IMG/VR virus record: IMGVR_UViG_3300045243_000060
Span: 1 to 61,888 of that record
Source: a virus
Taxonomy: Duplodnaviria; Caudoviricetes
Direction: 5' to 3' (one strand)
DNA length: 61,888 nucleotides
Position numbers and translations under genes: made by a program. The notes under the pieces are model-generated. The model was not told the origin of the DNA. It searched no databases and saw only the letters and a program-made list of their open reading frames with translations. How positions within the stretch are numbered: the first letter of the stretch is position 1; every line of letters starts with the position of its first letter. Below are positions 7,311 to 17,742 of this stretch, one piece after another.

Positions 7311-7526
7311 TTGGATGTACAGGTCAGCATACATGTAAGATCGGCCGCCGCCAACCGGAGCGCCATCGTCAGCGCGGGGCCAACTAAGGAAGTTGACGTG
7401 AACGTCGAGATCGGCAATGAGCACACGGACTCATATGCGGCTGGACGAGTCAAGGAGATCACGCAAGCGGCGACGGACTGCGCCAGCAAGATCGAGTTCA
7501 TGCTCAGAGAGGAGACGAGCCAATGA
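7311..7526 (+). CDS. Hypothetical protein
   Basis: RBS ggagagg upstream; overlaps the next start. Confidence 0.4.
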   Translation: MDVQVSIHVRSAAANRSAIVSAGPTKEVDVNVEIGNEHTDSYAAGRVKEITQAATDCASKIEFMLREETSQ

Positions 7527-8341
7527 GGGTAGCGGTACTAGGATGCGGGCCAAGCGGATTGCTTGCGGCCCACGCAGCGGAGGAGTGGGGCCATGACGTC
7601 GTCGTCTACTCCAGGCGCCAGCGGAGCGACATCCATGGCGCCCAGTACATCCATGAGTCGATCCCAAGGCTCTGCGAGGAGGCGGACGCGCAGCCGGTCA
7701 GCTACGGCAAGATCGGCGAGGCATCGGGCTACGCAGCGAAGGTGTACTTGGACCCAGAGCATCCGACGAGTTGGGACAAGTTCCCGGTCGGCGTCGTGCC
7801 GGCGTGGCCGATGACCGGGGTGTACGCAACCCTTTGGTCGCGGTGGGAGTCGAGGATCGTCCCGACCGTCATCACGCCGGACTGGATCAGGAACGTGATG
7901 CTGTCGGACGGCGGCCGACTGGCGCCGGACGTGATGTTCAACTCGCTGCCGCGTAACCTGCTGTGCGAGCAGACCGTCGCCGGACCGGACGAGTTGGCCC
8001 ACCAGTTCCAGTCGGCGCCGGTCGTGTTTGAGCCAGACGCGAAGCTCGGCGGCGAGAACTACATCCTGTACAACGGCAAGACGGACGACGACTGGTACAG
8101 GACAAGCCGGTTGTTCGGCCACTCGTGGACGGAATACAGCGCGAGTCTGTTCGTCGGCGAGGCGCTGCGACCCGGATGGCTGGTCGGCATCAAGCCCACG
8201 CACACGGACTGCGACTGCCTCAACGACGAGCGGATGATCCGCATCGGCCGGTTCGGTCGGTGGGAGAAGGCGACGCTGGTGACGGACGCGTACCGCCAGG
8301 CTGTCGCTCGCTTTGAGCGCGAGAAGGTGTTGGCTCGATGA
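7523..8341 (+). CDS. FAD/NAD-dependent oxidoreductase (UDP-galactopyranose mutase-like fold)
   Basis: Rossmann VAVLGCGPSGLLAA, GAQYIH, C-terminal IGRFGRW. Confidence 0.7.
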   Translation: MRVAVLGCGPSGLLAAHAAEEWGHDVVVYSRRQRSDIHGAQYIHESIPRLCEEADAQPVSYGKIGEASGYAAKVYLDPEHPTSWDKFPVGVVPAWPMTGVYATLWSRWESRIVPTVITPDWIRNVMLSDGGRLAPDVMFNSLPRNLLCEQTVAGPDELAHQFQSAPVVFEPDAKLGGENYILYNGKTDDDWYRTSRLFGHSWTEYSASLFVGEALRPGWLVGIKPTHTDCDCLNDERMIRIGRFGRWEKATLVTDAYRQAVARFEREKVLAR

Positions 8342-8646
8342 CTGTCATTTGGAAGTACCCGTTGGACATCCAGTATCAGCAAGGTGTTGCCATGCCACGC
8401 GGCGCGAAGATCCTGCGCACCGGCCTGATGCAGTACGACGACGACACCGGCACGCCGCTGATCTCCATCTGGGCGATGGTCGAGCCAAACGTGGAAAGGG
8501 TCAACCGCCGAATCTACATCCGTGGCACGGGCGGTGAACTGCCGTTGGAGTTGAACGGCGAGACCCAGTTCCATATCGCGACCGTGCCGATGGTCGTCAG
8601 CGGGCGAACGCTGATCTGGCATGTATTCGACGGAGGTGAACGATGA
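8338..8646 (+). CDS. Conserved phage hypothetical protein
   Basis: IWKYPL...MPRGAKIL...GTG...WHVF pattern common in phages; ATGA coupling. Confidence 0.6.
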   Translation: MTVIWKYPLDIQYQQGVAMPRGAKILRTGLMQYDDDTGTPLISIWAMVEPNVERVNRRIYIRGTGGELPLELNGETQFHIATVPMVVSGRTLIWHVFDGGER

Positions 8647-8825
8647 AGGCGACTGATATCGCAGACACGCTGGACGACATCGCCGAGATGATCCGGCAGA
8701 AAGGGCGCGCGAATCCGAACCTGTTTGTGTCGGCGACGATCCAACTCAACGAGGAGAGTCGGCTCGCGGTCCGGACGACGACGACCAAGAACGTCTGGCA
8801 TATGCAGTCGGGGATGGAACGATGA
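8643..8825 (+). CDS. Hypothetical protein
   Basis: ATGA-coupled on both sides. Confidence 0.5.
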   Translation: MKATDIADTLDDIAEMIRQKGRANPNLFVSATIQLNEESRLAVRTTTTKNVWHMQSGMER

Positions 8826-9499
8826 GGTGCTCGGAGTGCAGCCGCGAGATCAAGCCGGTCGTCGCCATCGACATCGACGGTACGCTCGGCGACTTCCATA
8901 GCTATTTCCTCGCGTTCTCGCAGGCGTACATCGGCCAGCGGTTCGTCTTTGACTATGACGGGTCTGAGTCGTTCCGCGACTGGTGGTGCGAGGCGACGGG
9001 GTGCAGCGAGGAGGACTGGCGTGATGTCAAGCTCGCGTACCGCCAGGGCGGCATGAAGCGTTCGATGCCGATATACGACGACGCGGCGAAGCTCTGCCAC
9101 ACCGTCCAATGGGCTGGCGCGGAGCTTTGGCTCACCACCACCCGGCCGTACCTCCGGTTGGACAACATCGACCCGGATACACGCGCCTGGCTCAGCCGGT
9201 ACGGCATCCGATACGACGGGCTGTTGTACGATGAGTGGAAGTATGCGCGGTTGGCGAAGCTGATCGACCATGACCGTGTCGTCGCGGTGCTGGACGACCT
9301 GCCGGAGATGATGAGGCATGCAGCCGATCACTTTGGAACGACGGCGCCGATCTGGAGGCGGACGCAATGGAACGTCGGTGGTCAGTTGGTGAACACCATC
9401 GCGCGTACCAACGACCTATCGTCGGCGACGGCGATGATCCTGAACAGGCTACAGACATGGAAGGAACGACATGCCGAACAACACGCAGAGTCCGTCTGA
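8822..9499 (+). CDS. HAD-family phosphatase (5'-deoxyribonucleotidase-like)
   Basis: DIDGTL motif I, LTTTRP motif II, K, LDD motif IV. Confidence 0.75.
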   Translation: MRCSECSREIKPVVAIDIDGTLGDFHSYFLAFSQAYIGQRFVFDYDGSESFRDWWCEATGCSEEDWRDVKLAYRQGGMKRSMPIYDDAAKLCHTVQWAGAELWLTTTRPYLRLDNIDPDTRAWLSRYGIRYDGLLYDEWKYARLAKLIDHDRVVAVLDDLPEMMRHAADHFGTTAPIWRRTQWNVGGQLVNTIARTNDLSSATAMILNRLQTWKERHAEQHAESV

Positions 9500-9839
9500 G
9501 GTGGAGGCTCGGTCGCGCGCCGGACTGGCCCTGGAGGAGCTAGGGCTGCCGGTGAACGACGACATGATTGAGCAGATGCTGGTCTGCGCTCGCGCGCTGC
9601 TCATCTACTCGGACCGCGAGCGCCAGTATGGCTCCACCTGGAAGCAGTTTGATGCGAACGACGCGGCGCATCACGTCGTCCACAAGGCTGCCCGGATGGA
9701 CGCGACGGCGAACGCCCATCGAGGTAGCGGAGACAGCGAGACCATCGACATGATCACGAACGCAGCGGTGGACTCGGCGTTAGACGCGATCATCTACGCG
9801 GGTTTCTTCGTCCGCCACGTGGAGGGCAAGGCGTCATGA
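9471..9839 (+). CDS. Nucleotide modification-associated domain 1 (DUF1599)-like protein
   Basis: RERQYGSTWK...KAARM...DSALDAIIYA pattern; neighbourhood. Confidence 0.55.
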   Translation: MPNNTQSPSEVEARSRAGLALEELGLPVNDDMIEQMLVCARALLIYSDRERQYGSTWKQFDANDAAHHVVHKAARMDATANAHRGSGDSETIDMITNAAVDSALDAIIYAGFFVRHVEGKAS

Positions 9840-10003
9840 AGCTCTGGGTGCTCGAGATGTATGAGCCAAAGCGGCGCTGGTGGGTGTACCTCAGCAAGAA
9901 GCGGGCGTTGCGACGACTGGCCTGGCTGCGCGAGCATTCCACCAACTTCGCGTACACCACCGAGTTGGACCCACCACTACCGTTCACCAACGACCGGCCA
10001 TGA
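9836..10003 (+). CDS. Hypothetical protein (55 aa)
   Basis: ATGA overlap with upstream gene; RBS ggaggg. Confidence 0.4.
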   Translation: MKLWVLEMYEPKRRWWVYLSKKRALRRLAWLREHSTNFAYTTELDPPLPFTNDRP

Positions 10004-16605: not shown

Positions 16606-16609
16606 GAAC

Positions 16610-16783
16610 ATGATCATTCTCAAGTACCTGTTCAAGCGTCCGACGTTCGACCAGGCGATGACCGAGTGCATGAAGGCGTACATCCGGAACGTCGAACCGG
16701 AGACGGTCGCGCCGTTGGAGGCGCTGCTAGCGACGGCCCGCGCGGAGATCGCTCATGAGGCCAAGGATCGGAAGTCCACATGA
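16610..16783 (+). CDS. Hypothetical protein
   Basis: High GC3; ATGA overlap with next gene. Confidence 0.45.
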   Translation: MIILKYLFKRPTFDQAMTECMKAYIRNVEPETVAPLEALLATARAEIAHEAKDRKST

Positions 16784-16980
16784 ATCAGACAGCGCGCTTC
16801 ACCGTCTACGTCCAAGGTGATAGCTACATCAGGGCGGCCGTCGTCGCGAAGCTCCGCGAGTTTGATTCCGCGTACGACATGCACGTCTGGCGATGGGACT
16901 GGACGGCAACGCCGGTCGAGACGTACGGCGGAACGATCATCCACTGGGAAGTGGACGTCACGGCGAGGAGGGCCGGATGA
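16780..16980 (+). CDS. Hypothetical protein
   Basis: Coupled ORF. Confidence 0.45.
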   Translation: MNQTARFTVYVQGDSYIRAAVVAKLREFDSAYDMHVWRWDWTATPVETYGGTIIHWEVDVTARRAG

Positions 16981-17177
16981 ACGACGACAGCCAGAACACA
17001 CGCGACCGGCTGGCGGAGGCGAAGGGCCAGATGTCGCTGTCAGCCGGAATGGACTATCGGACGGCCAACTGTCCGGAGTGCGGGCTACTCAAGACCAAGC
17101 GCGAGTTGGAGACGGGCTTTTGGGGCTTGTGTCGCGACTGCGAGGAAGAGAGGATCCAAGATGTTTGCGCGGGCTAG
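16977..17177 (+). CDS. Small zinc-ribbon protein
   Basis: CPECG...CRDC; RBS ggaggg. Confidence 0.5.
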   Translation: MNDDSQNTRDRLAEAKGQMSLSAGMDYRTANCPECGLLKTKRELETGFWGLCRDCEEERIQDVCAG

Positions 17178-17316
17178 GCGTTGGGTCGGCTGTCGGCTCC
17201 ACGGCCACGACTTCAGGGGCATCATCACGTACCCCGAGAAGCAGCACACATTGGTTCACCCTACGGGCGCAAATCTATCTAGCCCGCTCCGCCCTCGCAC
17301 AAGAACAGGAGAGCGC

Positions 17317-17742
17317 ATGAACCAGCACTCGGTACAGCGCGACGTAGAGGACTTCCACCGGGCGCTCGATGTTCCGGTTGGAGAGACACCGGCTATCCGC
17401 CGCCCGGAGTTGCGGGCCGCCCTGATCCGCGAGGAGGTCGAGGAAACGCTTGACGCCATCGAGCGGCGCGATCTAGTCGAGGCGATCGACGGCATGTGCG
17501 ACGTGCTCTGCGTCGTCTACGGGACCGCCGTGGAGTTCGGCGTCGATCTGGCCCCGTTCTGGGATGAGGTTCACCGGACGAATATGGCGAAGCAGGGAGG
17601 GCCGGTACGCGAGGACGGGAAGCGCCTCAAGCCTCCGGGTTGGGAGCCGCCGCAAATTGCTGCCCTACTTGCCGCCGAACAGGAGCGGTGTTACCGCTGC
17701 GGCCGGTACCGGACGGCCATCGACAAAACTCCTACCGAATAG
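17317..17742 (+). CDS. All-alpha NTP pyrophosphohydrolase (PRA-PH/MazG-like, dUTPase-type)
   Basis: VEDFH...LIREEVEE...DGMCDVLCVVYG...EVHRTNMAK...REDGKRLKPPGW. Confidence 0.8.
   Translation: MNQHSVQRDVEDFHRALDVPVGETPAIRRPELRAALIREEVEETLDAIERRDLVEAIDGMCDVLCVVYGTAVEFGVDLAPFWDEVHRTNMAKQGGPVREDGKRLKPPGWEPPQIAALLAAEQERCYRCGRYRTAIDKTPTE

Follow-up and report, generated by a model that had tools for sequence, protein, structure and literature searches.

What do the nucleotide enzymes grouped around a phage's own replicative polymerase do: alter the bases of its DNA, or tend the pool from which ordinary DNA is made? The locus that raises this question lies in a soil phage, IMG/VR virus record IMGVR_UViG_3300045243_000060 (Duplodnaviria; Caudoviricetes), the whole of which was analysed (61,888 bases, hereafter the window; completeness 93% by CheckV estimate). 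Embedded in its replication module, at positions 7523–17742, is a block encoding a flavoprotein-like enzyme (7523–8341), a HAD phosphatase (8822–9499), a small helical protein of an Nmad1 (DUF1599)-related family (9471–9839), a MazG-type nucleoside triphosphate (NTP) pyrophosphohydrolase (10000–10365), a DnaE-type replicative DNA polymerase (10434–13859), a divergent ThyX-like flavoenzyme (14401–15501) and a PRA-PH / MazG-like NTP pyrophosphohydrolase (17161–17742), all on the + strand. A sequence-only reading had named these seven genes, and all are present where it placed them; it had taken them for a base-substitution system in which two flavoenzymes generate a non-canonical pyrimidine nucleotide, or alternatively had the first flavoenzyme supply a sugar donor to virion glycosyltransferases. 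We tentatively favour a plainer explanation, with a probability of about 0.42: the block would be the nucleotide-metabolism arm of the replication module in a large lineage of lytic, actinophage-like viruses that encode DnaE, conditioning the supply of pyrimidine deoxynucleotides for phage DNA that stays essentially canonical. The cassette itself is real and conserved, and a role in altering the thymidine of phage DNA is one that it may have.

The cassette recurs widely. The flavoprotein was found by tblastn in 126 cultured actinophage records (Gordonia 46, Microbacterium 36, Mycobacterium 32, Streptomyces 9, Arthrobacter 2, Nocardia 1), all at less than 60% identity and labelled 'oxidoreductase', with the HAD partner labelled 'phosphatase'. 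Five named phages were inspected, namely Mycobacterium PBI1 and Leopard, Streptomyces Wentworth, Microbacterium TinyMiny and Arthrobacter Wollypog. All five share gene order and orientation with the window, with oxidoreductase, phosphatase, a few small genes, DnaE and then ThyX, the last position being occupied by a GT2 gene in TinyMiny. Identity to the window proteins was 32–35% for the flavoprotein, 40–43% for the HAD and 40–44% for DnaE across the set, and 56–60% for the ThyX of Leopard and Wentworth. The window differs from these phages in its additional DUF7352, MazG and PRA-PH genes, while PBI1 and TinyMiny have an SDR and a methyltransferase of their own that are absent from the window. 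Its DnaE also differs in being unsplit. DnaE is one gene in the window, PBI1 and Wentworth, and is annotated as two genes in Leopard, TinyMiny and Wollypog, where the gap holds a small open reading frame (ORF) or, in Wollypog, an HNH endonuclease. These genes are already in GenBank phages under generic names, making the window a new member of an uncharacterised set; literature searches on the function of the cassette, or on modified DNA in its actinophage carriers, returned genome announcements and unrelated papers only.

The same organisation was found among 80 flavoprotein-bearing IMG/VR loci, 46 of which lie on contigs of at least 45 kb and were used for record-wide counts. DnaE is located downstream of the flavoprotein in 71/80 loci, the remaining nine having at most 2.6 kb of downstream sequence. 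A HAD gene directly follows the flavoprotein in 59/80, and in about half of these 59 loci the stop and start codons of the pair fall within ~15 bases of each other, so that the two genes overlap or abut. Members of the Nmad1-like family occur between flavoprotein and DnaE in 64 loci. ThyX is found in 57/80 and a primase 1.7–5.3 kb upstream (most ~3.5 kb) in 52/80, and a Thy1-family gene is present in all 46 of the long records and all five named phages. The pyrophosphatases have a different distribution, with MazG and PRA-PH in 3/80 loci each, and DUF7352 (by tblastn) in 1/80. The conserved core is the flavoprotein, HAD, Nmad1-like protein, DnaE and ThyX-like enzyme, and both pyrophosphatases fall outside it. 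The core recurs in the actinophage records and in every IMG/VR relative that has sufficient flanking sequence. Extra genes were also present in the flavoprotein-to-DnaE interval of relatives, including SDR (16 loci), methyltransferase (6), UDG superfamily (5), dCTP deaminase-like (3) and MazG (3) genes. Its enzymes set the cassette apart from every characterised nucleotide-modification or pool module: the ThyX type stands in place of ThyA, a mutase-like flavoprotein and Nmad1 are present, and a kinase is missing.

From the identities, folds, conservation and co-occurrence of these genes we infer each substrate and reaction of the favoured scheme, in which the ThyX-like flavoenzyme (366 amino acids (aa); phrog_35637, 5e-118) would convert deoxyuridine monophosphate (dUMP) to deoxythymidine monophosphate (dTMP). 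It matches Pfam Thy1 (PF02511, 3e-29) with 102.6 bits against a cut-off of 24.8, over profile positions 43–191 of 191, and shares with ThyX the Arg, Ser and Arg of the family motif as well as the downstream arginines of YQDAR and YAYR. As aligned, these retained dUMP-type arginines count for pool conditioning. It differs from ThyX in an N-terminal extension of ~85–120 residues and a Cys-rich C-terminal extension (residues ~279–330), where Cys282, Cys304 and Cys316 are invariant and a CTFQGWE motif occurs in 22/22 subfamily members; this extension may be a metal site. The PBI1-type ThyX subfamily has a different Cys-rich tail.

The HAD enzyme (225 aa; phrog_415, 4e-17) would drain or balance dUMP and dTMP. 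Its DIDGT motif spans residues 17–21, with D17, D19 and G20 invariant across 40 sequences. An AlphaFold2 (AF2) model (pLDDT 93.7) found its best folds in 3bwv, a deoxyribonucleotidase-like protein from S. epidermidis, and 6g2n, the human cytosolic 5'(3')-deoxyribonucleotidase, both at Z 17.4 (root-mean-square deviation 2.6–2.7, 166–184 residues aligned), the next row being 1.3 lower at Z 16.1. Enzymes of this type prefer dUMP and dTMP. The window protein shares their fold and DxDxT motif but is only 14–15% identical and has no Pfam family match by sequence; the HAD nucleotidase of the sequence-only reading is upheld at the level of motif and modelled fold. PDB sequence searches with the HAD, and with the 122-aa protein encoded at 9471–9839, yielded nothing useful. 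The latter also lacks a direct Pfam match; it is tied by BLASTP (4e-17 to 6e-5) to the family sited between flavoprotein and DnaE, 5/38 aligned members of which match PF07659 (DUF1599 / 'Nucleotide modification associated domain 1', best E 4.5e-5), and the Atlas lead for the protein was Nmad1 (0.88). Its description as Nmad1-like is tentative and comes through its family. The Nmad domains are reportedly defined in a paper by Iyer et al. from 2013; literature searches on Nmad1 and DUF1599 gave nothing useful. Homology of the Nmad1-like family to the window MazG was considered and is not claimed (hhalign, 68 columns, probability 4%), and hhalign against the window PRA-PH enzyme gave a probability of 0.2%.

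The remaining enzymes, whose assignments were correct, scored above their cut-offs: MazG against PF03819 (40.8 bits, gathering 22; 2.6e-10; phrog_229, 9e-32), the PRA-PH-type enzyme against PF01503 (58.3 bits, gathering 21.3; 1e-15; phrog_671, 6.5e-35) and DnaE (1141 aa) against TIGR00594 (570.7 bits, cut-off 434.35). All three are ordinary members of their families. Both pyrophosphatases are lineage-variable accessory genes, and would hydrolyse unwanted deoxynucleoside triphosphates. The flavoprotein and the Nmad1-like protein would act with these enzymes on a phosphorylated nucleotide or sugar.

The flavoprotein (272 aa; phrog_8720, 1e-48) has a GxGxxG dinucleotide-binding fold. By sequence, it matched Pfam only at this N-terminal motif and under cut-offs, did not match Pfam GLF at E ≤ 0.1, and in PDB searches with either the single sequence or a profile again recovered the N-terminal motif only. 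An AF2 model built with 55 homologues (pLDDT 95.6) was compared with solved structures. Foldseek against the PDB left D-amino-acid oxidase, VioD and mutases tied at TM ~0.5. A representative-wide structural search placed a eukaryotic UDP-galactopyranose mutase (UGM), the nearest solved structure, at the top with Z 14.7, many two-domain flavoenzymes scoring Z 11–13, and a search of all PDB chains returned UDP-galactopyranose or UDP-N-acetylgalactopyranose mutases in rows 1–33 (Z 13.2–14.6, 14–17% identity), followed by PhzS and protoporphyrinogen oxidase at Z 13.0. The UGM-like fold proposed earlier therefore holds for the model, by the small margin of ~1.5 Z over other two-domain flavoenzymes.

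The alignment covers 231–265 of the 272 residues against mutases of 359–516 residues, and the protein is ~95–125 residues, or about one third, shorter than the bacterial mutases (367 or more residues). UGM itself has a three-domain fold that includes a helical uridine-binding domain. Compared with E. coli Glf by hhalign and hmmsearch, only ~40 N-terminal residues align, comprising the shared GxGxxG ... GG/GA-x-Y segment, and similarity is undetectable beyond it; a C-terminal G-R-F-G-x-W in the flavoprotein resembles G-R-L-A-E-Y of E. coli Glf by eye, without statistical support. Across the flavoprotein family, a set of Tyr, Arg, Lys, Glu and His residues does not vary, and Cys148, Cys230 and Cys232 are nearly invariant. 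Ser30 (at least 90% of sequences) takes the position of the Glu that ends the second strand of the dinucleotide-binding fold in E. coli Glf, with a basic residue after it; an acidic residue here ordinarily contacts the ribose of adenosine. FAD and NADP are candidate cofactors, and the conserved Cys residues form a putative metal site. A search at E ≤ 1e-3 gave the family 1252 representative clusters; of the 150 listed, nearly all are 240–290 residues long.

Markers of established base-modification systems were searched in six frames over the whole record. ThyA (PF00303), the PurZ family (PF00709), TGT (PF01702) and TET/JBP (PF12851) gave no match at E ≤ 0.1, as the sequence-only reading had anticipated, nor was there a match to thymidylate kinase (PF02223) or the AAA_33 P-loop kinase. 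By these searched families the window differs from the hydroxymethylcytosine (hmC) system of T4 and from the PurZ/DatZ/MazZ, DpdA and TET/JBP systems. It also differs from the pathway of 5-hydroxymethyldeoxyuridine kinase and aGPT-Pplase in having no AAA_33 match, no search for aGPT-Pplase having been made.

A second line of evidence came from palindromes counted over the whole record. Several 6-bp palindromes were near-absent (observed/expected, O/E): ACCGGT 0/40.6, AGCGCT 0/33.1, CCGCGG 0/31.3, GAGCTC 0/21.7, GGGCCC 0/15.5, CGATCG 1/31.9, CCCGGG 1/28.9 and GTCGAC 3/36.6. Over-representation was seen for CAGCTG (20/9.9) and CCGG (763/590). Restriction pressure is an established cause of palindrome avoidance, and the pattern here suggests that the host exerts strong Type II restriction pressure. 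Such avoidance implies that the sites would be cleavable in virion DNA, with C/G, and T in TC or TT contexts, unshielded. The near elimination of both T-containing and G/C-only palindromes argues against complete substitution in the style of T4 or PurZ. We consider complete substitution highly improbable, in spite of the likeness that the window bears to T4 hmC and PurZ/DatZ/MazZ: the phage polymerase gene shares a block with those for a nucleotidase-like HAD and two NTP pyrophosphatases. The logic of pool cleaners, a modifier and an own polymerase is weaker than the sequence-only reading put it, though the nucleotide-enzyme cassette is genuinely conserved. The pyrophosphatases do not travel with it; phage records with DnaE number 1174 and those with the flavoprotein 126, so the polymerase does not need the flavoprotein; and a deoxynucleoside monophosphate (dNMP) kinase was not found in the record, any more than the ThyA-, PurZ-, TGT- or TET/JBP-type enzymes.

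Conditioning of the pool, our preferred explanation, has further points in its favour. The dCTP deaminase-like, UDG-superfamily and MazG genes that accompany the cassette in relatives are classic enzymes of thymidylate and uracil hygiene. The strong restriction-site avoidance, and the failure of the record searches to find a DNA-acting transferase or kinase, count on the same side. Other points weigh against it. Plain dTMP supply gives no role to the flavoprotein or the Nmad1-like protein, the most tightly conserved partners. The flavoprotein family is practically virus-only: across the genomes of 185,579 species it was found on 2 contigs of metagenome-assembled genomes (MAGs), both bearing the phage module. 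These are labelled Scandinavium and Saccharibacteria, carry a flavoprotein-HAD-DnaE module at ~50% G+C, and are probably phage contigs binned into MAGs. The SDR and small-molecule methyltransferase of relatives have the look of enzymes for tailoring, not for tending a pool.

The ThyX-like enzyme, atypical as the sequence-only reading had it, adds to these difficulties. Its score against the TIGR02170 equivalog, 75.9 bits, is under the cut-off of 87.9. ThyX carries the signature RHRxxS...SxR with a central His; in the window the signature reads RSRRASFHQQSMR, aligned to RHRHFSYSQLSQR of M. tuberculosis ThyX, and the central His is absent. A profile of 22 subfamily members was aligned to the ThyX of M. 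tuberculosis and C. glutamicum. GGLQTALE of the profile falls on the VGHFSVLEH segment of the M. tuberculosis enzyme and RSRRA.FHQQS.RA on its RHRHFSYSQLSQRY, so that in the window subfamily RHR has become RSR, the His of GH..LEH is replaced by Leu and the Tyr after S.R by Ala. Among the lineage ThyX-like ORFs the RHR His occurs in 0/43, with Q in 21, S in 15, T in 6 and E in 1, a count that covers the 43 of 48 ORFs fitting the motif pattern and excludes the 5 that do not; the PBI1 motif reads RQR. In T. maritima ThyX the first-listed histidine, the central His of RHR, stacks on folate; a literature search on this point returned no paper. As judged from these alignments, the lineage-wide loss of canonical ThyX residues would count against ordinary dTMP synthesis, as would, by analogy, the modified thymidine of Pbunavirus phages that carry remote homologues of the set.

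It is these phages that make a partial, context-specific thymidine hypermodification the rival to be taken most seriously, albeit one that we think unlikely. According to the preprint PMC12191111, thymidine derivatives at 362 U and 390 U occur in the virion DNA of Pbunavirus F8 and 14-1, where they replace about a quarter of T, within a TG motif; they are explained there as derived from a sugar alcohol or an aldopentose. Its main text names no biosynthetic genes and does not contain 'ThyX', and its supplementary or extended data may hold gene-level information. By arithmetic, the 362-U nucleoside has the composition of deoxyuridine and an aldopentose after loss of water and gain of two hydrogens, and equally that of thymidine plus a tetrose. 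Transferred to the window, this would mean that deoxyuridine or thymidine acquires at C5 a substituent derived from a sugar, through the joint work of a ThyX-like enzyme that lacks the His, the mutase-like flavoprotein and the HAD/Nmad1 pair. The reaction could proceed in the pool or on DNA, and would reach only some T, for example in TG. Pbunavirus phiKT28 has consecutive genes for ThyX, a HAD 'polynucleotide kinase', DnaQ and DnaE. The window flavoprotein profile matches phiKT28 gene 068 (E 0.0024; by hhalign, probability 92.7%, E 4e-7, 136 columns, reaching past the GxGxxG motif), and the ThyX-like protein matches phiKT28 ThyX, whose motif reads RTR, with an hhalign probability of 99.1%. 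Gene 060 (9623–10636), the 'polynucleotide kinase', consists of a HAD_PNKP domain (residues 9–147) and ~190 more residues, and its C-terminal part is weakly matched by the window Nmad1-like profile in collinear segments (E 0.018 and 0.43), which suggests a HAD + Nmad1 fusion. The HADs of the window and Pbunavirus both match phrog_415, but the window HAD profile has no direct match to the Pbunavirus HAD. Pbunavirus thus resembles the window in having a flavoprotein-like gene, a His-less ThyX, a phrog_415 HAD, a weak MazG-like gene and DnaE in one module, and differs in that homology is remote, the flavoprotein belongs to phrog_4828 rather than phrog_8720, gene order is not the same, the HAD has a C-terminal extension and modification has been shown chemically there only. 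Precedents are offered by three further papers: in SP-15, whose modification has another chemistry, one of two Thy1-family proteins has been put forward as a hydroxymethyluridylate synthase, with an ACP-reductase gene next to it (PMC5977210); in PaMx11, gp47 acts in DNA hypermodification as a flavin-dependent lyase (PMC8989533); and an RB69 ThyA homologue makes 5-hydroxy-dCMP, its bound flavin species having been analysed (PMC13326640).

Palindromes in the window were also compared by TG content. Those containing TG/CA were less depleted than the rest (median O/E 0.85 vs 0.42), and among the 11 whose expected count reached 8, no O/E was below 0.40. The trend was not significant (Mann-Whitney p = 0.10; p = 0.053 with E ≥ 8; p = 0.63 when G+C-matched), and CATG and TGCA are under-represented (O/E 0.69 and 0.55). 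We do not use the contrast as support for modification, its significance being lost on G+C matching. Against hypermodification, no Pbunavirus gene has been tied to the modification, and the shared set may have come down as part of the replication module. Pool enzymes alone would hardly account for a mark confined to TG. The record searches recovered neither a dNMP kinase nor a P-loop DNA kinase, nor any DNA-acting transferase, and literature searches turned up no modified DNA reported for the cultured actinophage carriers. A specific form of the idea, drawn by analogy with F8, is rather improbable: that the cassette makes a sugar-derived C5-alkyl deoxyuridine. Working without folate, the ThyX-like enzyme would use an aldose or aldose phosphate, rather than a methylene, for the reductive alkylation of uracil at C5. 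Covalent flavin catalysis in the mutase-like flavoprotein would serve to present or open the sugar, a phosphate would be taken off by the HAD/Nmad1 pair, and only some T, perhaps in TG, would carry the modification. Such folate-independent alkylation of uracil by a ThyX-like enzyme is proposed here as new chemistry.

The possibility of shared inheritance also bears on whether the genes form one pathway at all. Since the whole replication module is syntenic, with the primase upstream in 52/80 loci and DnaE and ThyX downstream, adjacency may reflect descent rather than function and weighs little. The flavoprotein, HAD and Nmad1-like protein might then meet another viral need, for instance to take over the host or to counter its defences by way of a small molecule derived from a nucleotide, with ThyX and the pyrophosphatases supplying dTMP. 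A virus-only flavoprotein family would suit such a division, as would the small-molecule tailoring to which the SDR and methyltransferase partners point. Set against it are the overlapping or abutting flavoprotein and HAD codons of many loci, the suggested Pbunavirus HAD + Nmad1-like fusion, which argues for joint action of at least these two, and the presence of ThyX alongside the flavoprotein in 51/51 records. We hold this division of labour to be improbable. The proposal that virion glycosyltransferases receive a furanose sugar donor made by the mutase-like flavoprotein fares far worse and is very unlikely. UDP-galactopyranose mutases are the nearest solved fold of the flavoprotein, and the glycosyltransferases exist as the sequence-only reading said: the head-tail operon at 37227–41084 contains three GT2 genes, a PIG-L-like deacetylase gene and an S-adenosylmethionine methyltransferase gene. 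GT2, the only glycosyltransferase family searched, is missing (PF00535) from all 46 IMG/VR relatives, including all 33 of those that are at least 90% complete, and from 4/5 named relatives, the sole GT2 gene, in TinyMiny, adjoining DnaE. Its absence from relatives implies that the glycan cassette is an independent feature of the window phage, and by its distribution it looks like a recent acquisition. The shortness of the flavoprotein relative to the mutases, and its failure to match the GLF family, also speak against a donor-making role.

More than 100 cultured, freely available actinophages and at least 1252 metagenome sequence clusters carry the cassette. Should modified thymidine prove true, genes would be assigned to the Pbunavirus modification, new flavin chemistry on nucleotides would come to light, and the result would bear on restriction evasion by phages used in therapy and genetics. 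Should the block supply dTMP only, a large unstudied ThyX clade would have been defined, together with an unexplained partner enzyme.

The surroundings of the block are those of a replication module. The window has a G+C content of ~65% and nearly all its coding ORFs on the + strand, and a near-identity DNA search of a phage collection found no close relative. Among sequencing runs, a search listed one DNA run containing it, perhaps that of the source sample, and no RNA run. Upstream of the block are genes for a helicase (619–2670), a Cas4/RecB-like exonuclease (3013–4197), a Sak4/RecA-like protein (4492–5283), SSB (5303–6094) and a primase (6348–7307). Between the flavoprotein and HAD genes are a DUF7352 protein outside the conserved core (8338–8646, +, 102 aa; PF24043 at 3e-18) and a translationally coupled 60-aa ORF with no family match (8643–8825, +), and a coupled 55-aa ORF from the ORF listing (9836–10003, +) precedes MazG. 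Consecutive ORFs in 7311–10365 share 4-base start/stop overlaps, with one pair sharing 29 bases, confirming the coupled block of the sequence-only reading. The MazG ORF was listed as 9880–10365, and its start is most likely the ATG at 10000, judging by its position within an ATGA overlap with the upstream stop. A scan of 6000–19000 for promoters and terminators found nothing exceeding shuffled controls. After DnaE, a ~290-base gap (13860–14147) holds a single 44-aa ORF (13881–14015) and is followed by an 89-aa ORF that overlaps the ThyX start (14148–14417, +), both without a family match. The PRA-PH-type gene has a probable start at an internal ATG near 17317. Downstream of the block, an AAA/primase-helicase-like gene (17746–18774) is followed by a gene matching the RuvC-like resolvase of phage Leopard.

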